Source: Cyanidioschyzon merolae
Lineage: Eukaryota
Reading direction: 5' to 3' (one strand)
Length of the DNA: 64,000 nucleotides
Assembly (NCBI GenBank): GCA_000091205.1
Contig: AP006497.2
The notes below the pieces were generated by a model. The model saw only the letters and a program-made list of their open reading frames with translations, ran no database searches and had not been told where the DNA came from. The position numbers were made by a program, and so were the translations under genes. Shown here piece after piece: positions 9,231-63,876 of this stretch (within the stretch, counting starts at the first letter, position 1; each line of letters opens with the position of its first letter).

Positions 9231-9992
9231 CCATGTCTTCCCGGAGCCTGTAGGCGCCTTAATCACGCCGCTCTGACCTGTTCTCAAAAGAGGAATCGCA
9301 CGACGCTGCACCAAGGTCGGTGCGTTGATGCCGTTTGCAGCCAGTATCGCCCGCACTTTTGCATTCGCGACCAGAGCGGAAAAGTCAGCGTCAGCATTCG
9401 CTATCTCCGCTTCGCTGTCACCGGGTATGAGATACGAGTCTATCAGGGAAGCCGACGCTGCTTCCACCTGCTCAGCTGGGCTCTTTTCGACCGCCGGAGA
9501 CGGCGGCAGCTTCGCAGATGAACCCGAACGTTGCCGTCGCTTTTCACCTGGGGGTGAAGCCAAGGCTTCTTGCCCGTTGCCGTTCCGTTTCTGTGCAAAG
9601 CTAGCTGGTTTACCATAGCCGTTTTTAGGGCCGTCACGAGCACTCGGTGGACCGGAAGCATCCCGACGTCGCGGGCGCTCGCGAGCCATGCACCACCAGC
9701 GATGCCGGCTGTAGCAACGTTCGCTGCTCCTCTCCAAAGCAGTGGAATTGTGCTTTCTCGCTGAGGGCACACTTGGGCTCAACGCAATCCAAGACGGTAT
9801 TTCCGTAATCGCCATCGAAAGAAAACCTCTTGAAGCACGCTCAGCGAAGAGGCCGTCGAGTCCAGCGGTGCCAGGACGCTGTGCACGTCGCCGCGGGGCA
9901 CTGGAATGACCCTCGCCCTCCTGCAACCCGCGCTGCACCTTGTTGTGCTGAACGAGTTGATCGTCGTAGAGGTAATCACGCGGTTTCCGCAT
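9231..9992 (-). CDS. DEAD-box RNA helicase, exon 1 (N-terminal extension, Q motif and Walker A). The start Met is uncertain.
   Basis: Encodes ...GINAPTLVQRRAIPLL (Q motif) and APTGSGKTW (motif I). The codon TGG at 9231-9233 is followed on the minus strand by GTAAGT. The ORF track runs through this into the intron and hits a stop at 9192. The N-terminal ~180 aa is an R/S/G-rich extension. The Met at 9992 overlaps the divergent EVE ORF start, so the real start may be a downstream Met. Confidence 0.7.
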
Positions 9993-10050
9993 GCTTGGAA
10001 CGATATTCGGGACCGGGTTATTGTTCTTGGTCCCAGTAACGCCAACTCTG

Positions 10051-10698
10051 ATGAAACTGCGGAAACGATCACTACCTGGTACTTGTGCTGCGAGCAGTCG
10101 CCGCGCTGGTGCTGTGCGAGCCCAGGTCGAGCGCTCTTCCCCAGAAGCAGAAGCGGTTCAGTTACCCGATCGTTCGGCGGAAAAGATCCAGAAACATCGC
10201 CTTGGAGCGAAGAAGCATGCCGTTGCGTATTATTTGGTAAAAAGCGAGGGTTCAGGGCCGCGCAAGTTCACCGTTGATGACCTTGCGGCGAGTCCTCTGC
10301 GTTGCACCAGCTGGGACGGCGTGCGTAACTTCCAGGCCCGCAACGTGCTACTATCCATGCAACTTGGAGACTTTGCCCTCTTCTATCACTCAAACTGTAA
10401 GCAAGCGGGGATAGTGGGCATTGTCGAGATCGTCCGGGAAGCCTACGTCGACCAGACCCAATTCGATAGCACGGACTCCGAGGCGTACGACCCCCGTGCG
10501 ACTCCCGACAAACCACGCTGGTATGCGGTGGACGTGAAACTTCAGTTGAAGCTACCGCGACCGATTCCGTTCGAGGAGTTGAAACAGTATGCAACGCCGG
10601 GCGGTCCACTGGACGGTATGCTGCTGTTCTCGCAGGCGCGCTTGAGCGTGCAACCGGTGCGCCCGGAGCATTTTCGATTTATTCTCGGCCTTTTTTGA
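10051..10698 (+). CDS. EVE (PUA-like) domain protein, thymocyte nuclear protein 1 (Thy28)-like
   Basis: The ORF is open from 9991. The conserved EVE core reads HAVAYYLVKSEGSGPRKFTVDDL...WDGVRNFQARNVLLSMQLGDFALFYHSNCKQAGIVGIVEIVREAYVDQTQFD...RWYAVDV, preceded by a basic region (MKLRKRS). The start at 10051 is chosen because the Met at 9991 overlaps the head-to-head helicase ORF. Confidence 0.75.
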   Translation: MKLRKRSLPGTCAASSRRAGAVRAQVERSSPEAEAVQLPDRSAEKIQKHRLGAKKHAVAYYLVKSEGSGPRKFTVDDLAASPLRCTSWDGVRNFQARNVLLSMQLGDFALFYHSNCKQAGIVGIVEIVREAYVDQTQFDSTDSEAYDPRATPDKPRWYAVDVKLQLKLPRPIPFEELKQYATPGGPLDGMLLFSQARLSVQPVRPEHFRFILGLF

Positions 10699-12815: not shown

Positions 12816-14141
12816 TGCTTCAGAAACGTACGAACAGACCAGGAGAGATACCCAGGAACAGCAACTTCAGTTTCAAGTACGATCGTTTGCACGGCGTGCG
12901 CAACGACAGGTGCGGCGTCGATGATCGCGCCCTGGGGCGTCTGTGGCGGGCGGGGCGCCTCGCACTGCGCCAGCGCACATCGCGATGCCGCACCTGCACG
13001 CATGGGCCGTACAACATAGTATAAATATGGAAGTATGTAGACGCGTGATGTGTCGCTGGGCGGCGGGTACGCCACAGCCCAGCGCAGCACACAACATATC
13101 TGGTCAGTGCGGCGACACGGGTGCGCGTACGCATTACTCGAAGCGCTCGCGGTGTCGGTATGTTCGATATTCACGAGCGGACGCTGCTCCCGGGAGAGTC
13201 GAGATCTGGGTCGGCCGGGGCGTATCGAGTGCGCCAAAGCCGCCACTGGATGCTCGAGTACGACCACCAGAGGTATCGTATGTGCCGCAGCTTGTACATT
13301 GGCGCACCACCAGAAATTGCAATCCGTACCAGAACCCTGACAAATCCTTGTTGAGTCTACCAGCGGCTATTTCTTATCCGCTCTTTCCCTATAGATACCA
13401 GGCATAGTATCCCGTACGTCTCCATCTCATCTTTCCCTATAGATACCAAGCACAGCATCTTGTATATGTCCATCTCATCCTTCCCTATAGATACCAAGCA
13501 TAGTATCCCGAATATGTCCATCTCATCCTTCCCTATAGATACCAGGCATAGTATCCCGTACGTCTCCATCTCATCTTTCCCTATAGATACCAAGCACAGC
13601 ATCATGTATATGTCCATCTCATCCTTCCCTATAGATACCAAGCATAGTATCCCGAATATCTCCATCTCATCCTTCCCTATAGATACCAAGCACAGCATCT
13701 TGTATATGTCCATCCCATCCTTCCCTATAGATACCAAGCACAGCATCATGTATATGTCCATCTCATCCTTCCCTATAGATACCAAGCACAGCATCTTGTA
13801 TATGCCCATCTCATCCTTCCCTATAGATACCAAGCACAGCATCTTGTATATGCCCATCTCATCCTTCCCTATAGATACCAAGCACAGCATCTTGTATATG
13901 TCCATCCCATCCTTCCCTATAGATACCAAGCACAGCATCTTGTATATGCCCATCTCATCCTTCCCTATAGATACCAAGCATAGTATCCCGAATATCTCCA
14001 TCATCGACATAGCAGCGTCAGCGCTATGGACACCGTGCCTCCGCTGCGTCGATGGAAACGCGCGGCCGACGGCGCATCGGCCGGAGTACGCACCTCAGAC
14101 GCGTCAACTGAACAGCTCGCTGCTGGCTGCGGTATGCGTTT
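12816..14141. promoter_or_regulatory. Divergent (head-to-head) intergenic region between the TPT and family-A DNA polymerase genes. It contains the 48-bp minisatellite.
   Basis: The region is flanked by the start codons of two oppositely oriented genes at 12815 (minus) and 14142 (plus). No coding signature apart from the repeat-maintained ORFs. Confidence 0.4.
13378..14005. repeat. Minisatellite: 48-bp unit, about 13 tandem copies, in two alternating variants
   Basis: The unit tccatctcatccttccctatagataccaagcacagcatcttgtatatg is repeated head to tail. It alternates with a variant ending ...caagcatagtatcccgaatat(g/c)tc and a caggcatagtatcccgtacgtc form. The period is divisible by 3, so ORFs persist through it on both strands. 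Confidence 0.9.
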
Positions 14142-16988
14142 ATGCGCTGCGCTGCGTCGTTTCAGAGACCCGCAGAGAGCTACCATGATCTGCAGCCTAC
14201 GCTGACATTGCGAACGGAGTGCAACCAACGCAGTTCCCCGGTGAAGCGTCTTGAAACGCGTCCAGTTATCATGCGGTTAGGCGTAGGGTCTTGCCGGTTG
14301 TGGCTGGGCGCATTCGTGTACGCACTGCGTCCCGCTCTGCGAAGAGACGGAAACGTTTGGCAGCAGTGGCGCCGGGCACATGCCCTCGTGCCTGCTGTGC
14401 CTCGACGACGCTGGCTGTGTGCGAACGCCCGCCGTTCGGCTGCTAGTACCTGGGACGAGGAAACGGACGTGGTTGGTGACGAGTTCAGCTCCGTGAACCT
14501 GGTACAGGCGAGCGCGGCAAAGATAACCGAAGGCGACGAGTTCACCGCCCAGCGACTGCAGTTGCTGAACGCGCCTGAGCGCGAGAGCGCTGCCGCCACG
14601 CTCGAAAGGTCACCGCCGCCTGGTGTAACCGTCGTGCGCAACCGCGCAAGTGCGTTGCGCGTGATTGATCGGCTTTGGCAACTTCAGAAAGAGTCGGAGC
14701 TTCTTTACGGACGTCGGGCTGCTTCGGTGCCGAGGCGATGGCGTCTCATAACGGAGGGTTGTACCCACTCGAATGGCAACGGTGTGCTCCACGAGGACAA
14801 CACGCTCCAGTGCAAGCGTCTGTATCCACCGACCGCAGCGGACTGGATGGAGCACTCGCAGTGTTATCACGCTTGGGATACGGAAACCATTGGCATTGAT
14901 CCGACAGAGGACTCCCCTGTTGGGAAAGGTCAGGTGATCTGTCTCTCGGCGTTCTGTGGGCCGCGTGTAGACTTTGGGAATGGACCCCGCCTTTGGATCG
15001 ACAATTTTGGCGACGCACAAGGTACGCTGGACTATTTCAAGTCTTATTTCGAAAATGAGGAAATTCCCAAAGTTTGGCATAACTACAGCTTCGACCGAGC
15101 GGTCCTTTATAACCACGGCATCGACTGTCGAGGATTCGGCGGCGATACCATGCACATGAGCCGACTATTGGACGCAGCGAGACTGCGTTACTCTCTGGAG
15201 GCGCTCACGGAAGACTTTCTGCTGCGGAAGAAACGCAGCATGCGGGAGCTGTTCGGTCGGCCTCGTATTTTGAAAAATGGAAAACCAGGCAAGGAGATTA
15301 TCGTACCGTCCACCAGCGAACTCCAGATGGACCCTGAGACCATGTACCACTGGGTGCAGTATAGCACCTATGATGCCGAGGCAACCTGGTATCTGCGCGA
15401 TAAATTTGAGCGTCTGCTTCGTGAACAGGAGATCCTCGGCTCGGAGCGAACCATGTATGACCTTTATACGGAATGTTTCGTTCCTTTTGGTGCGGTCTTA
15501 ACCGATATGGAACGCATCGGCTTCAAGATTGATATTGCGCGACTCCAAGATGCGCAACGTGTAGCCGAAGCCGACCGCCAACGTTACACTGCAATGTTTC
15601 GAGAATGGGCAGCGCGCTACTGTGCTGATGCAATCCACATGAATGCCGAGTCGGAGAATCAAAAGCGCCAATTCTTTTTCGCCCCGGTCCGGAACAAGAA
15701 AACCGATGAATTGTTGCCAGCAGAGCGCACTTTCGAGGTCGAGAACACGGAACAGGTCGTGGAGTCCGCGGGGAAGAAGCCCCGCAAGAAGCGAACCATA
15801 CAAATATCCGGTCTCGGGCTGCCGCCCGTGGCGTTCACTGCAAGCGGTTGGCCGGCTTGCACGGCGGTGGTGCTGCGGAAACTGGCGGGCACGCCGAGCG
15901 CGAGTCCCGCCCAGGGCGGGCTCCTGTATGACTTTCTCACCAAAGAGCGACGGGAGAGCGCGGAGGATGCGCTTGCGGCGTGCAAAGCCGTTGAGGCGCT
16001 ACTTGAGGCTGGTGCAGTCGGCACCCTGCTCGACAGTTTCATCGATCCGCTGCAGAAGATGGTGGATAAGAACCATCGCATTCATGCGTCGCTCAACTTG
16101 AACACGGAAACAGGTCGGTTGTCGTCGCGGCGGCCGAATCTGCAAAATCAACCCGCTCTAGAGAAAGATCGCTATCGTGTTCGGGATGCTTTCACTTGCG
16201 AGGAGGGCAATACGCTGATTGTAGCGGACTATGGCCAACTCGAGCTGCGATTACTTGCGCATATCGCCAACTGCCGCAGCATGATTGAGGCGTTTAAGGC
16301 TGGTGGCGACTTTCATTCGCGCACGGCGAGCAGCATGTACCCGTACATCGCAGAATCCGTTGCCCGCGGCGACGTGCTTCTTGAACCCGAGCCCAATGCC
16401 AACGGACAGGCCACTTCGTCGAAGCCGCTGCTCAAGGATGTATACGCAGGGGAGCGACGTCGGGCCAAAACACTCAATTTTTCAATCGCATACGGGAAAA
16501 CGCCAGCTGGGCTGGCGCGAGACTGGGGCACCAGCCTGAAAGAAGCTCGCGAGACCGTAGATGCTTGGTACCGGGATCGACCCGAGGTTCGTGCCTGGCA
16601 GGAGCGCGCTATTAAGTTCGCGCAAACCCATGGATTCGTGAAAACGCTGCTGGGTCGACGGCGGCCTCTGCCGGAGATCAACTCCCCGAATACGAATGCG
16701 GCTCGCCATGCGGAACGTGCAGCGATTAACACCCCTCTCCAAGGTAGCGCAGCCGATGTTGTTATGAAAGCCATGCTGCTCATTCATAGCAACGCACGTT
16801 TGGCTGAACTTGGCTGGCGAATGATCCTCCAGGTCCACGATGAGATCATCCTCGAGGGGCCCGAAGAAACAGTCGAAGAAGCGGAAGCAATTGTCGTTCG
16901 GCTTATGCGTCAACCGTTCCGTGAACCGCTGCGCGTTGACCTCGCTGTTTCGGTCGCTCACGCGAAGACGTGGTTTCGTGCAAAGTAA
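14142..16988 (+). CDS. Organellar-type family-A DNA polymerase (Pol I-like, POP-like) with a 3'-5' exonuclease domain and an N-terminal targeting-like extension
   Basis: Exo motifs: YHAWDTETIGIDP (Exo I, DxE) and YSTYDAEATWYL (Exo II). Polymerase motifs: DYGQLELRLLAHIA (motif A), RRRAKTLNFSIAYGKT (motif B) and QVHDEIILEGPEE (motif C). The N-terminal ~100 aa is R-rich and acid-poor (MRLGVGSCRLWLGAFVYALRPALRR...), consistent with an organelle presequence. Confidence 0.85.
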   Translation: MRCAASFQRPAESYHDLQPTLTLRTECNQRSSPVKRLETRPVIMRLGVGSCRLWLGAFVYALRPALRRDGNVWQQWRRAHALVPAVPRRRWLCANARRSAASTWDEETDVVGDEFSSVNLVQASAAKITEGDEFTAQRLQLLNAPERESAAATLERSPPPGVTVVRNRASALRVIDRLWQLQKESELLYGRRAASVPRRWRLITEGCTHSNGNGVLHEDNTLQCKRLYPPTAADWMEHSQCYHAWDTETIGIDPTEDSPVGKGQVICLSAFCGPRVDFGNGPRLWIDNFGDAQGTLDYFKSYFENEEIPKVWHNYSFDRAVLYNHGIDCRGFGGDTMHMSRLLDAARLRYSLEALTEDFLLRKKRSMRELFGRPRILKNGKPGKEIIVPSTSELQMDPETMYHWVQYSTYDAEATWYLRDKFERLLREQEILGSERTMYDLYTECFVPFGAVLTDMERIGFKIDIARLQDAQRVAEADRQRYTAMFREWAARYCADAIHMNAESENQKRQFFFAPVRNKKTDELLPAERTFEVENTEQVVESAGKKPRKKRTIQISGLGLPPVAFTASGWPACTAVVLRKLAGTPSASPAQGGLLYDFLTKERRESAEDALAACKAVEALLEAGAVGTLLDSFIDPLQKMVDKNHRIHASLNLNTETGRLSSRRPNLQNQPALEKDRYRVRDAFTCEEGNTLIVADYGQLELRLLAHIANCRSMIEAFKAGGDFHSRTASSMYPYIAESVARGDVLLEPEPNANGQATSSKPLLKDVYAGERRRAKTLNFSIAYGKTPAGLARDWGTSLKEARETVDAWYRDRPEVRAWQERAIKFAQTHGFVKTLLGRRRPLPEINSPNTNAARHAERAAINTPLQGSAADVVMKAMLLIHSNARLAELGWRMILQVHDEIILEGPEETVEEAEAIVVRLMRQPFREPLRVDLAVSVAHAKTWFRAK

Positions 16989-41974: not shown

Positions 41975-42680
41975 TGGCGATTTGCTCATCAGCTTGGTCC
42001 GGATATTCACTGAAGGTGTCGCGTGAAATGATCGATTCCGTTCGGAAGATAAATCTTCCTCTCTTTGTGGCCTTGAATGAAACGATTTTCGACGCTAGTG
42101 TGATATCTTTTATGGGATGCAATCGTGGAGGCTCCGATCTTTACTGTTTGCATGAAAAAGGGTCTTGAACTCGGGCTTGCGTCATTGGAGCGATAGGTTA
42201 CAGTGAAGTGCGCGTCGCAGCGTGTAACGAAGCGAACACAGGCGGATGGAGATTGTCGTATTCCCTTCCAGCTTGGATTCTTCTTTCAGTGTTTGTTTTA
42301 TCATGGACAACAGTGCATGGAAACCATCGATCGATTGGAGCAGCTTGTAAAGCGGCATGTGACGAAGCGAGCACTGGCGAATGGACTTTGGTCGTATTCC
42401 TCTTCAGCTTGGATTCTTCTTTCAGTGTTTGTTTTATCATGGACAACGATTCATGCAAACCATTCATCGAATGGAGTGTCGAGCGCTCATATGGCCGGTA
42501 GCCAGCGCACTCGCCGAAGGGGTCGCCCGGAACAATGCCGTATTCGTACGATACGGCACTGGGTGCATAGACGGTGTAGAGCATCTAGAAGAGCCCTATG
42601 GAGGCCTCAAGAGCATGTACCAAGCTATGAAGCAAGCGCTCACGAGCGACGGGGCGGCTCCTGGAGAAAGAGTTGTGGTG
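41975..42680. repeat. Dispersed repeat, copy A, internally repetitive (137-bp tandem duplication plus an inverted internal motif)
   Basis: The two copies are about 75% identical by eye: 42001-42180 matches the reverse complement of 54780-54960 (catgaaaaagggtcttgaactcgggcttgc against catgaaacagggtcttggagtcggatttgg). Within copy A, cgtattcccttccagcttggattcttctttcagtgtttgttttatcatggacaac is repeated in tandem about 137 bp later. Its reverse complement (atgaagcaagcgctc) recurs at about 42610. Confidence 0.6.
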
Positions 42681-61456: not shown

Positions 61457-62327
61457 CTTGAGCGCCCTTGAGCTAGGCGGAAAACGGGCTATGGACAACG
61501 TCGAAGCCGTACCGAGGTTTCCAGGGTCCGGTTGAAGCGCAGGCACGATTCTTGTTTGCACCCGTATCAGGCTTTGTGGCGACTCGAGCGGAACGCAGCA
61601 GCCACGAACGCAATAGGGGTTGCACGTCTACCCGTTTCGCCACCTGAGGAGAGAACTGGATGGATTCGCTGCGCTTCAAAGTACGACGCTGATGTTGCGT
61701 GCGAGATGTTCAACCGCACGCCGCTTCCTGATAAACGGGATCGGGTCAGCTCGATACTTTGCTCTTTACGATCGATGTTGTGGAAGCAGTTGCATATCGA
61801 TGCACAGCGAGAAACCTTTCTCACGGCCTGTGCGGATATCATGAGCATCGTGTGCACGGTATTTTGCTTTCTGCACCCGATTTTGTTGTGGGAGTAGTTG
61901 GTTGCTGAAGCAGAGCGAGACAATTCATTCGCGCCTGGTGAGCGTCTCGCTGGCATCCGCTTTCGTTCGCAGAGCCGTGCGCAGCAACATAATATAGGGC
62001 GCAGGTTCCCGCGTAGGAGCCTAGGGAACTCGCGCAGCGTCCTCCTGCAACAGCGCATCGCGGTTTCCGAAGTATCCTTGTGAGGCTCTTTACCCGCAAA
62101 ACCAGTAGCTGTTCTCAATAGCGTGAATGAAAAGGGCGGCATCTGCTCCAGAAGCCGTTATCGGGTGTAGCGGCGGCGACACTTACCTCAACGCAGTTCA
62201 TTGCGACAAGCGCAACCATCGTATGCACGGACGAGCCCCCGCTGATACCCATACGACTCACCAGGTAAACAACGAACACATACACGACATCAGTGTACAG
62301 GAAATGCTGCCGATGCAAAGTCCATCC

Positions 62328-63407
62328 CTACGGTGCAGGTCGATCGAGCAGTGCTGGATCCAGCTTGCAGTGCAGTTCCTGCTGCGCTTCGAATAGGCGA
62401 AGGAACGCCTCAACGGCGGCACGTGTATCCGCTCGCCAGCAGAGTGTCGCCCTCAGCTTATCGATAGATGATCTCTCCGCTGCACTATCGTTGTGCGCTG
62501 ACGCTGTATCCAGCGGAAGATAGCAGCGTTGCCGTAGGGTAGACTCTGGCCACTGGCCTCCTTCCGCCGGTACCAGCTCGAGAACGCGCCCCAGGAACCA
62601 GAACGTCACCGCCGGTCGACGAAGCGTGCCTTTCCCGTCCAAAGAGTCAGTACACGGGACCGCTTCACAGAGACTGCAGTGCCGAACCAGCGGTCGAAGT
62701 AGTTGCACACGGGCACCGGCCTCCTCGAAGGCCTCGCGACAGGCCGCAGCAGCGGGTGTTTCACCGACCTCGACACCGCCGGCCGGTAAGATGTAACGGG
62801 CTGGCTGTTGCCCCGCTTGTCGCTGATTAGCGCCGTCGCTGGTTTGATGTCGAGACGTCACAGCTAGGATGAAGCGCTCATCCGGTGACAGGGCCAACAC
62901 ACCGGCTCGCACGCGAGCATCCAAGGCGCTCCGGTCGGCGGAAAGCCTCTGGGCACAGCGGCACGGCTCGAAGCCAGTCACAGTTTGCCATCCGAGCTCC
63001 GAGACTGAAGCTGGTGTATCGTCCGACATTATAGGGCGGCTCAGACCCCACCGCGCTACTGGTCTGGGGGTCGCATTCCCGCAGACCTTGTGCTTTGGTA
63101 CCCGCGAGCAACGCAGAAGCCGGTCAACGTCGCTGTTGCGCACTGTTCGAAACGAAGCGCTGTACGCGCAGGGTAACGTTTGTGTGAATCGAAACGCTTC
63201 TCTGCGGCTGTGTTCGCTGCTCGGGCGCCTTCGGGGACGCATGGCTACCTTAAGCTTCCTTTTCGGTACGTCTTCTGCCAGGTTCACTTCAGGACACGAT
63301 GCATGGTCGCGGGCGGGTGTCCGAGCGTCGTGGAACGTGGCGCCAGCCCAGCGTTTGCCCCGAGCGAAGGTCGGACTGCGGACCCTGGTGGCGCGCACCA
63401 AGAGCAC
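62328..63407 (-). CDS. NUDIX hydrolase. The likely true start is the Met at 63029, since the upstream ORF extension overlaps the SmpB gene.
   Basis: Nudix box GGVEVGETPAAAACREAFEEAGARV (G-x5-E-x7-REUxEExGU). The C-terminus is unique. The ORF upstream of the Met at 63029 is R/S/P-rich and overlaps the opposite-strand SmpB ORF. Confidence 0.7.
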   Translation of the reverse strand: MLLVRATRVRSPTFARGKRWAGATFHDARTPARDHASCPEVNLAEDVPKRKLKVAMRPRRRPSSEHSRREAFRFTQTLPCAYSASFRTVRNSDVDRLLRCSRVPKHKVCGNATPRPVARWGLSRPIMSDDTPASVSELGWQTVTGFEPCRCAQRLSADRSALDARVRAGVLALSPDERFILAVTSRHQTSDGANQRQAGQQPARYILPAGGVEVGETPAAAACREAFEEAGARVQLLRPLVRHCSLCEAVPCTDSLDGKGTLRRPAVTFWFLGRVLELVPAEGGQWPESTLRQRCYLPLDTASAHNDSAAERSSIDKLRATLCWRADTRAAVEAFLRLFEAQQELHCKLDPALLDRPAP

Positions 63408-63876
63408 CTCGAGTCCTAGCGTCGAAAACCGTCGAATAAACTTTCAGTATGAGGTTCTTTGGACCTTGGAATGTGGAATAGAGCTCAAAGGAACGGAGAT
63501 TAAGTCGGTGCGGGCGGGGAAGATGAACATCCGAGACGCGTTTGCGCGGGCGAAGCGAGGAACCAACGACCTCTGGCTCTATAACTGCCATATTGCGCCA
63601 CATGACCGAACAGCGACGTTCTTCAACCACCAACCGACACGACCTCGCCGTCTCTTAGCGCATAAACAGGAAATTCGGCGGTTGCTGCAGGCTCAAGAGG
63701 AAAAGGGACTTACGCTGGTACCGCAGCGGTGTTACTTCGACCAGCGCCAGCGGCTGAAAGTGCTGCTCGCAGTCGCCCGTGGTAAGAAACTTCACGACAA
63801 ACGCGAGAGTATTCGGGAACGTGACGAGGCACGTTCCATGAAACGATTCGCCAAATACGACCTGAGAGACTTGTAG
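63241..63876 (+). CDS. smpB: SmpB (tmRNA-binding trans-translation protein) with an N-terminal organellar presequence-like extension. The ORF is open from 62869.
   Basis: The core is colinear with bacterial SmpB: NFQYEVLWTLECGIELKGTEIKSVRAGKMNIRDAFARAKRGTNDLWLYNCHIAPHD...RRLLAHKQEIRRLLQAQEEKGLTLVPQRCYFDQRQRLKVLLAVARGKKLHDKRESIRERDEARSMKRFAK (cf. E. coli GKKQHDKR). It is preceded by about 65 aa of S/T/A/R-rich, acid-poor sequence starting at MATLSFLFGTSSARF. Confidence 0.85.
   Translation: MATLSFLFGTSSARFTSGHDAWSRAGVRASWNVAPAQRLPRAKVGLRTLVARTKSTSSPSVENRRINFQYEVLWTLECGIELKGTEIKSVRAGKMNIRDAFARAKRGTNDLWLYNCHIAPHDRTATFFNHQPTRPRRLLAHKQEIRRLLQAQEEKGLTLVPQRCYFDQRQRLKVLLAVARGKKLHDKRESIRERDEARSMKRFAKYDLRDL

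Follow-up and report, generated by a model that had tools for sequence, protein, structure and literature searches.

Introduction

Bacterial SmpB proteins, e.g. those of T. thermophilus, T. maritima and E. coli, have been solved in complex with the ribosome, and they act together with a tmRNA in which a tRNA-like domain is combined with a tag reading frame. In structures of bacterial trans-translation the C-terminal tail of SmpB fills the empty mRNA channel, and the tmRNA of E. coli comprises 363 nt. A related arrangement is found in the mitochondria of oomycetes and jakobids, where the RNA gene has stayed in the mitochondrial genome while that of SmpB, provided with an import signal, has moved to the nucleus (Hafez et al. 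2013; Gray et al. 2020, PMC7050145). The tmRNAs of these mitochondria are strongly reduced, and those of jakobids even lack a tag frame. Gray et al. (2020, PMC7050145) scored Rhodophyta as negative for this system.

In plastids, SmpB is nuclear-encoded and imported (Himeno et al. 2014), and the red alga Cyanidioschyzon merolae provides a described example. Its SmpB is listed as "Algal plastid-targeted, Cyanidioschyzon merolae" (Hudson et al. 2014, PMC4131195), and a preprint of 2025 that cites Jacob et al. 2005 presents the protein as localised to the plastid and able to function in bacterial trans-translation. This (Jacob et al. 2005, J Biol Chem 280:5503; Hudson, Lau and Williams 2014, PMC4131195) is the very gene analysed here, BAM81626.1 / XP_005537662.1; the nuclear gene, the N-terminal extension and the plastid-encoded ssrA are all shared, i.e. 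there is no biological difference. The gene has been in the databases and the literature since 2005, and the finding is not new. The locus tag CMO290C did not occur in the literature searched, and in Janouskovec 2013 and Lee 2016 ssrA or tmRNA is mentioned in the reference lists only. tmRNA is among the housekeeping transcripts of a C. merolae organelle microarray.

Here we compare the locus with these systems. We consider it about 93% probable that this nuclear gene of C. merolae 10D encodes the plastid SmpB, and we argue that its database model probably starts too far upstream.

Results

A nuclear gene encodes a complete SmpB

The window, i.e. the whole stretch of 64,000 nt of contig AP006497.2 that was analysed, contains an uninterrupted open reading frame of 335 codons at 62869-63876 on the plus strand, which is annotated by NCBI as "ssrA RNA (tmRNA)-binding protein, small protein B" (BAM81626.1 / XP_005537662.1, 335 aa). 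The 211-aa protein that starts at an internal ATG of this frame, at position 63241, matches the NCBIfam equivalog NF003843 with 176.7 bits (cutoff 130; residues 53-205), the equivalog TIGR00086 with 169.1 bits (cutoff 119.1) and Pfam PF01668 with 172.8 bits (cutoff 27; residues 61-205). These family matches are far above chance level, and phmmer against the PDB yields E = 8e-39. The coordinates of all features are compiled in Table 1.

Four open reading frames of the window are exact matches to C. merolae 10D proteins on one NCBI record of 902,900 bp, and the flanking genes are eukaryotic, coding for V-ATPase subunit d, Vps4, a UBX/TUG protein, a protein kinase and a plant organellar DNA polymerase. 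Thus, the gene is nuclear DNA of C. merolae 10D, and both the nuclear-encoded SmpB and the eukaryotic flanks that an earlier note on this DNA had recognised from the letters alone are borne out. The G+C content of the gene, 59%, is similar to that of the remainder of the window. Neither a tmRNA nor any other Rfam family was detected when the window was searched for both, as expected for a nuclear region.

Eight environmental contigs allow the locus to be compared with independent assemblies. All eight carry a call for the identical 211-aa protein, which is recorded on 36 contigs in the collection, and they differ from the window by 0-2 nt over the 636-nt coding sequence. The gene order NUDIX, SmpB, ribose-5-phosphate isomerase is kept in 8/8 contigs, as is the divergent arrangement of the NUDIX and SmpB genes, and the region between their start codons may be a putative shared promoter and 5' leader. 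The NUDIX hydrolase gene itself is a neighbour outside the SmpB system.

Table 1. Features of the SmpB locus; positions refer to the window.
Feature	Position	Strand	Remarks
NUDIX hydrolase gene CMO289C	62328..63029	-	233 aa + stop; exact match to BAM81625.1; Pfam NUDIX 46.3 bits
In-frame upstream extension	62869..63240	+	372 nt; used in NCBI 335-aa model BAM81626.1; no Pfam match
Region between divergent NUDIX and SmpB start codons	63030..63240	.	211 bp; from gene coordinates
Site deciding the gene model	63189..63192	+	AAT CGA (open) in the window, AAC TGA (stop) in all eight environmental contigs
SmpB coding sequence, precursor form	63241..63876	+	211 aa + stop; NCBIfam and Pfam matches over curated cutoffs; conserved gene model
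Presequence, putative plastid transit peptide	63241..63411	+	residues 1 to ~57; missing from cyanobacterial SmpBs in alignment
SmpB beta-barrel core	63412..63795	+	residues ~58-185; AlphaFold2 pLDDT ~90-95
GKKLHDKR motif	63781..63804	+	residues 181-188; junction of core and C-terminal tail; read directly
Basic C-terminal tail	63796..63873	+	residues 186-211; helix 187-210 predicted (AlphaFold2 model)

Beyond the family matches, the protein has all parts of a bacterial SmpB. Its predicted fold is the SmpB oligonucleotide-binding beta-barrel: in a Foldseek search against the PDB the top 21 matches were all SmpB chains, and the AlphaFold2 model superimposes on the structures from T. maritima, T. 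thermophilus and A. aeolicus with target-normalised TM scores of 0.85-0.92 and an rmsd of 1.3-2.0 Å. The GKKLHDKR motif, which the earlier note had read in the bacterial-type core, is present, and G181, K182, K183, D186, K187 and R188 are invariant in an alignment with cyanobacterial SmpBs and the E. coli protein; the tail that follows aligns with bacterial SmpB tails. Core fold, invariant residues, the GKKxHDKR junction and a basic helical tail are thus shared with the bacterial proteins, and the reading frame encodes a true and complete SmpB.

The coding sequence probably starts at position 63241

If the annotated model was correct, the product would be a protein of 335 aa that begins at 62869 with MKRSSGDRANTP... 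and in which the Phe-rich segment described below would be internal. The 10D sequence is indeed open from 62869 and NCBI adopts this model. We nevertheless regard it as unlikely, as the frame is open in the window through an adjacent TC/CT swap at positions 63189-63190 relative to the environmental contigs, all of which (8/8) have a TGA at 63190-63192, 17 codons upstream of the ATG at 63241; these near-identical contigs differ by only 0-2 nt over the coding sequence. Moreover, the first 161 nt of the upstream extension overlap the NUDIX coding sequence on the opposite strand, and the orthologues from Cyanidiococcus and Cyanidium, with 207 and 231 aa, respectively, leave no room for the extension.

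Two further observations point in the same direction. The 335-aa form occurs on one contig only, the NCBI record, as opposed to 36 for the 211-aa form, although contigs with a call for the 211-aa product were more likely to be retrieved. Codon usage scores -0.008 and -0.069 bits per codon in the extension, below the 5th percentile of in-frame windows, and 0.086 in the SmpB coding sequence, but this is a weak test as the region of the transit peptide scores low as well (0.018). Based on the stop codon, the NUDIX overlap and the short orthologues, the start at 63241 is better supported than the annotated model, in agreement with the start given for the protein in the earlier note. Position 62869, where that note had let the gene begin, would only be the start of the longest open reading frame, and the 372 nt that follow it are probably not translated, being better read as 5' leader or promoter and as antisense of the NUDIX gene.

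The N-terminus resembles a rhodophyte transit peptide

Unlike bacterial SmpB, the C. merolae protein has a presequence that is predicted to be disordered (AlphaFold2 pLDDT < 50 at residues 1-55). It extends beyond the bacterial N-termini by about 50-57 aa, as the HMM match begins at residue 53-61 and the alignment with cyanobacterial SmpBs agrees with this. Residues 1-57 contain 9 K/R, 1 D/E and 14 S/T, and Phe is found at residues 6, 8 and 15. The N-terminus quoted in the earlier note, MATLSFLFGTSSARF..., is correct and so is its description as S/T/R-rich and acid-poor, whereas the length of about 65 aa given there is too high. Phe has been described as a hallmark of rhodophyte transit peptides in C. 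merolae (PMC9407449). The composition of the presequence is typical and the Phe residues near its N-terminus are in keeping with a rhodophyte transit peptide, suggesting putative plastid targeting.

A plastid genome encodes the cognate tmRNA

The earlier note had predicted an ssrA gene in an organelle genome of the organism. We took the tag peptide from the C. merolae chloroplast entry in the built-in list of ARAGORN, back-translated it and scanned it against metagenomes; generic patterns of the tmRNA T-arm were dropped as queries as they would match many bacterial tmRNAs. The tag matched a single contig of 149,616 bp, in which both ARAGORN and Rfam RF00023 (58.6 bits, cutoff 47) call a tmRNA gene at 9842-10074 on the minus strand. 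This contig is metagenomic, i.e. it is not from strain 10D, and it is assigned by its size and by three exactly matching proteins, the products of rbcL, rbcS and infB, which are identical to C. merolae NP_848945, NP_848946 and NP_848940. A plastid genome that agrees with C. merolae in all three proteins compared thus encodes the tmRNA that is cognate to SmpB, just as predicted.

The RNA has a canonical tRNA-like domain with the 5' sequence GGGGCUG, a G3-U pair and a T-arm ending in CAGCUCCA, and its tag reading frame is ANQILPFSIPVKHLAV. In contrast to the tmRNA of E. coli it is compact (~233-246 nt), the central pseudoknot region being largely deleted in the Rfam alignment. It also differs from the mitochondrial tmRNAs in that its tag frame is intact.

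The SmpB core is closest to cyanobacterial proteins

Apart from the Cyanidiales, all top matches that bear an organism name are cyanobacterial, with 50-56% identity, and the median identity of the core is 53.5% to cyanobacteria and 46.5% to alphaproteobacteria. Group-specific HMMs score 197.9 bits (cyanobacterial), 177.1 bits (alphaproteobacterial) and 200.7 bits (mixed bacteria); as the cyanobacterial profile does not beat the mixed one, this result argues only against alphaproteobacteria.

In a neighbor-joining tree of 70 SmpBs (142 columns, 200 bootstraps) the protein groups with other N-terminally extended algal SmpBs and adjoins the cyanobacteria. Orthologues with such extensions are found in Cyanidiococcus, Cyanidium, Porphyridium and an ochrophyte, and the Cyanidiales trio is recovered with 93.5% bootstrap. 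The grouping of cyanobacterial with algal SmpBs stays under 10% and deep nodes reach 4.5-5.5%, i.e. the tree yields the algal/cyanobacterial placement but not the support at depth, and we do not claim that the tree proves a cyanobacterial origin. A clade of the window protein and alphaproteobacteria that excludes cyanobacteria appears in at most 1% of the replicates. Clustering with cyanobacteria was also reported from an unpublished tree (Hudson et al. 2014, PMC4131195). Cyanobacterial ancestry of the core is thus favoured, but weakly resolved.

Discussion

The earlier note had left open whether the presequence directs SmpB to the mitochondrion or to the plastid. Judged from sequence and literature, the organelle is very probably the plastid rather than the mitochondrion, as the best bacterial matches are cyanobacterial, the N-terminus is Phe-rich and the record for Rhodophyta shows neither SmpB nor tmRNA in mitochondria.

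SmpB might instead enter the mitochondrion, either exclusively or as a dual-targeted protein, and serve a reduced mitochondrial tmRNA that went unrecognised, as in jakobids and oomycetes. A basic, acid-poor presequence would also suit mitochondrial import, and Gray et al. (2020, PMC7050145) point out that mitochondrial ssrA genes show little conservation and easily escape detection. We consider this very unlikely, however, since the same study records neither SmpB nor tmRNA for the mitochondria of Rhodophyta (Table S3B), the alphaproteobacterial HMM falls 21 bits below the cyanobacterial one, the tree hardly ever joins the protein to alphaproteobacteria alone, a cognate plastid tmRNA exists and the protein is called plastid-targeted in the literature. 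The oomycete and jakobid systems follow the same logic but differ from C. merolae SmpB in organelle and ancestry. Slightly less likely still is a second role beside the plastid one, be it by dual targeting or by a longer 10D isoform with another destination, made from the open upstream frame, in which SmpB would also serve the mitochondrion together with a highly reduced, so far unrecognised mitochondrial tmRNA of red algae; none of our results points to it. The bacterial-type core with its 50-56% identity to cyanobacterial proteins might suggest contamination with bacterial DNA, or a gene that was recently acquired by horizontal transfer and plays no part in an organelle. This is effectively refuted by the synteny common to eight independent assemblies and by the N-terminally extended orthologues, the more so as the gene lies between eukaryotic genes within a chromosome-scale C. 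merolae record and has the G+C content found elsewhere in the window.

With the plastid as the putative destination, the bacterial system and the literature suggest the following course. The 211-aa precursor would be synthesised in the cytosol, its basic, Ser/Thr-rich and Phe-containing transit peptide would direct import across the plastid envelope and would then be cleaved off, and mature SmpB would bind to the tRNA-like domain of plastid tmRNA that is charged with alanine. Translation would subsequently change over to the reading frame of the tmRNA, the nascent chain would receive a tag ending in HLAV and be degraded by stromal proteases, and the ribosome would be freed at the tmRNA stop codon.

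As compared to the database entry of the algal SmpB, we favour the shorter model (211 aa, start at 63241). The entry probably has 124 codons too many at its N-terminus, so that targeting predictors would fail to see the transit peptide, and positions 63189-63190 of the reference warrant re-checking. The practical gain of this correction of the gene model is small and no new biology is added. Unlike in bacteria, the C. merolae protein and its RNA partner are encoded in different genomes, and the case illustrates a known rule of organellar trans-translation, namely that the RNA partner stays in the organelle while the protein partner moves to the nucleus, in the red lineage, whose plastids, in contrast to those of land plants, keep the bacterial ribosome-rescue pathway (2025 preprint).

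SmpB and its genomic setting

The window contains an open frame of 335 codons (Table) whose translation is identical to BAM81626.1/XP_005537662.1, named "ssrA RNA (tmRNA)-binding protein, small protein B" by NCBI, and an internal ATG of this frame encodes a product of 211 aa. Within the 211-aa product, the SmpB equivalog NF003843 covers residues 53-205 at 176.7 bits (cutoff 130) and Pfam PF01668 covers residues 61-205 at 172.8 bits; the equivalog TIGR00086 scores 169.1 bits (cutoff 119.1). Among PDB sequences, phmmer matches the product to Thermotoga maritima SmpB (E = 8e-39) and to 14 further distinct SmpB sequences. In an AlphaFold2 model based on an alignment of 49 sequences, residues 60-185 show a pLDDT of ~90-95, residues 187-210 form a C-terminal helix and residues 1-55 remain below 50; all 21 best Foldseek matches of the model in the PDB are SmpB chains (TM up to 0.92, rmsd 1.3-2.0 Å). 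Of the eight residues of the GKKLHDKR motif, six (G181, K182, K183, D186, K187 and R188) do not vary across the aligned sequences, among them SmpB of E. coli. The assignment of this frame to SmpB in the earlier note is thus borne out by NCBIfam, Pfam, phmmer, Foldseek and the motif alike.

Four other ORFs of the window match C. merolae 10D nuclear proteins exactly, all located on one NCBI record of 902,900 bp (Table), and plainly eukaryotic genes, i.e. those for V-ATPase subunit d, Vps4, a UBX/TUG protein and a protein kinase, are found elsewhere in the window. The G+C content is uniform (0.50-0.60 per 2-kb bin; SmpB bin 0.59). No tRNA, tmRNA or Rfam family was matched within the window, as expected for an RNA partner that is not nuclear. 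The window also harbours two tandem repeats, the one with the 48-bp unit ~140 bp upstream of the organellar DNA polymerase gene, and, between a 2056-aa Mon2/TPR-like gene and the NUDIX gene, a 191-aa ORF that lacks a Pfam match and is called as a gene (190-191 aa) on all eight environmental contigs used for comparison below.

Coordinates of the features in the window and on the plastid contig L089
Feature	Sequence	Position	Strand	Details
SmpB, 335-aa model	window	62869-63876	+	BAM81626.1
SmpB, 211-aa model	window	start 63241	+	ATG
Additional 124 codons	window	62869-63240	+	no Pfam match
GKKLHDKR	window	63781-63804	+	residues 181-188
Codon CGA	window	63190-63192		TGA in environmental contigs
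TC-to-CT swap	window	63189-63190		AAT CGA (window), AAC TGA (contigs)
Plant organellar DNA polymerase	window	14142-16988		BAM81611, exact match
ABC anion transporter	window			BAM81620, exact match
Enoyl reductase-like protein	window			BAM81618, exact match
NUDIX protein CMO289C	window			BAM81625, exact match
191-aa ORF	window	61567-62142	-	
Tandem repeat, 48-bp unit	window	13385-14002		12.9 copies, 90% matches, TRF score 942
Tandem repeat, 136-bp unit	window	42227-42476		1.8 copies, 87% matches, intergenic
tmRNA (ARAGORN)	L089	9842-10087	-	tag ANQILPFSIPVKHLAV
tmRNA (Rfam RF00023)	L089	9839-10074		58.6 bits, gathering score 47
5' part of ARAGORN tmRNA	L089	10071-10087	-	start 13 nt upstream of Rfam start
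tRNA, anticodon CAU	L089	9752-9840	-	89 nt

The plastid tmRNA partner

The built-in tag table of ARAGORN has an entry "Cyanidioschyzon merolae Chloroplast ANQILPFSIPVKHLAV". This tag plus a stop codon, back-translated to an IUPAC pattern, gave exactly one match among JGI metagenome contigs, on the 149,616-bp contig L089, where both ARAGORN and Rfam find a tmRNA (Table). The rbcL (488 aa), rbcS (138 aa) and infB (446 aa) products of L089 agree residue for residue with NP_848945.1, NP_848946.1 and NP_848940.1 of the C. merolae plastid, so that the contig represents a plastid genome of the C. merolae type; the locus ends with a 16S rRNA gene. The tmRNA has the 5' end GGGGCUG, with a G3-U pair against the 3' strand CAGCUCC; its T-arm reads GGACGUGGGUUCAAUUCCCAC, its discriminator is A, and CCA is not encoded. 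Most of the central pseudoknot region of the RF00023 model falls into deletions when the sequence is aligned to it, which fits the reduced plastid tmRNAs known from the literature (Himeno et al. 2014).

The reasoning of the earlier note, which predicted an organellar ssrA gene from a nuclear SmpB with a presequence, is sound and its prediction holds, the organelle being the plastid. For the mitochondrion, Rhodophyta are scored negative for both SmpB and tmRNA (Table S3B in Gray et al. 2020, PMC7050145).

At the 5' side of the L089 tmRNA, AGGGCUGUAACAU precedes the true-looking end GGGGCUGUAAGG, i.e. the first bases are nearly duplicated, and position 10074 is the probable 5' end of the mature RNA. 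The tRNA 1 nt downstream of the gene has an unusually long variable arm and, as drawn by ARAGORN, an 8-bp acceptor stem. Its antisense is matched by the Rfam model 'Plastid-ycf2 5UTR' with a 12-nt insertion (36.9 bits, short of the gathering score, 65.7), so that this model resembles the reverse complement of a CAU tRNA.

Presequence and ancestry of SmpB

HMM bounds, alignment and pLDDT consistently make the N-terminus ~50-57 residues longer than that of cyanobacterial SmpBs; this presequence is shorter than the ~65 aa proposed earlier. Residues 1-57 comprise 9 K/R, 1 D/E, 14 S/T and 9 Ala; positions 6, 8 and 15 are Phe. Phe near the N-terminus has been described as typical of rhodophyte transit peptides, including those in C. 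merolae import experiments (PMC9407449; for background see PMC2222254). Unconserved, Phe-containing extensions are also found in the orthologues from Cyanidiococcus, Cyanidium and Porphyridium and in several other N-terminally extended homologues. We infer that SmpB is targeted by this putative transit peptide.

Among the best 120 matches in 5.8 billion proteins, all those with an organism name are cyanobacterial (48-60% identity), cyanidialean orthologues aside. Compared with labelled bacterial SmpBs from GTDB genomes, the core has a median identity of 53.5% to cyanobacteria versus 46.5% to alphaproteobacteria, and HMMs score 197.9 (cyanobacterial), 177.1 (alphaproteobacterial) and 200.7 bits (mixed bacteria). 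In an NJ tree the three Cyanidiales SmpBs group at 93.5% bootstrap and sit, together with Porphyridium and other extended proteins, beside cyanobacteria, with deep nodes below 10% support, while a grouping with alphaproteobacteria receives at most 1%. Identity, HMMs and tree favour, short of proof, a cyanobacterial origin of the core, in agreement with Hudson et al. 2014 (PMC4131195), who mention an unpublished tree in which it clusters with cyanobacteria. Three contigs from GTDB genomes (L069, L043, L051) are probably mis-binned or mislabelled: the SmpB of a MAG contig labelled Bordetella parapertussis groups with picocyanobacteria, and those of the contigs assigned to Frankia sp. RB7 and to Sediminibacterium ginsengisoli fall into a tight group with Bradyrhizobium.

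Proposed trans-translation in the plastid

Two components are observed: an SmpB gene in the nucleus whose product carries a presequence, and a tmRNA of the plastid in which both the tRNA-like domain and the tag frame are intact. By analogy with bacterial trans-translation and the literature, SmpB would be made in the cytosol, imported and freed of its presequence, and would then bind the tRNA-like domain of Ala-tmRNA; template switching would add the ANQILPFSIPVKHLAV tag, after which translation would terminate, the ribosome would be released and the tagged product would be proteolysed. According to a 2025 preprint, which cites Jacob et al. 2005, the SmpBs of C. merolae and Thalassiosira are plastid-localised and functional in bacterial trans-translation, and a C. 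merolae organelle microarray lists tmRNA among housekeeping transcripts.

The gene is already known: it is annotated by NCBI, cited in reviews and recent work, and entered under "Algal plastid-targeted, Cyanidioschyzon merolae" in the paper on the tmRNA/SmpB database (Hudson et al. 2014, PMC4131195), the window SmpB being not merely similar to that entry but the same gene.

The start codon of SmpB

Eight contigs from environmental metagenomes (JGI, ENA) encode the identical 211-aa protein and share with the window the gene order NUDIX, SmpB, ribose-5-phosphate isomerase; their 636-nt CDS has 0-2 nt differences from that of the window. In all eight, an adjacent two-base swap turns CGA into TGA, which ends the upstream frame 17 codons ahead of the internal ATG, i.e. 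in this comparison the 335-aa ORF is open in the reference only. Retrieval favoured contigs on which a 211-aa product is called; nevertheless, the longer form is recorded on one contig only, the NCBI record, versus 36 contigs with the 211-aa form. Besides this TGA and the lack of a Pfam match, the 335-aa model is opposed by the overlap of the first 161 nt of the extension with the opposite-strand NUDIX CDS, by orthologues too short to hold it (Cyanidiococcus 207 aa, Cyanidium 231 aa) and, weakly, by its codon usage. From these sequence comparisons we conclude that 63241, the start proposed in the earlier note, is the functional one, and BAM81626.1 looks 124 codons too long. The dinucleotide of the reference either stems from an erroneous transposition of two bases or is a strain-specific variant by which the frame is opened by chance. 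The sole by-product of value is the evidence for an N-terminal over-extension of the public gene model, which would mask the transit peptide.
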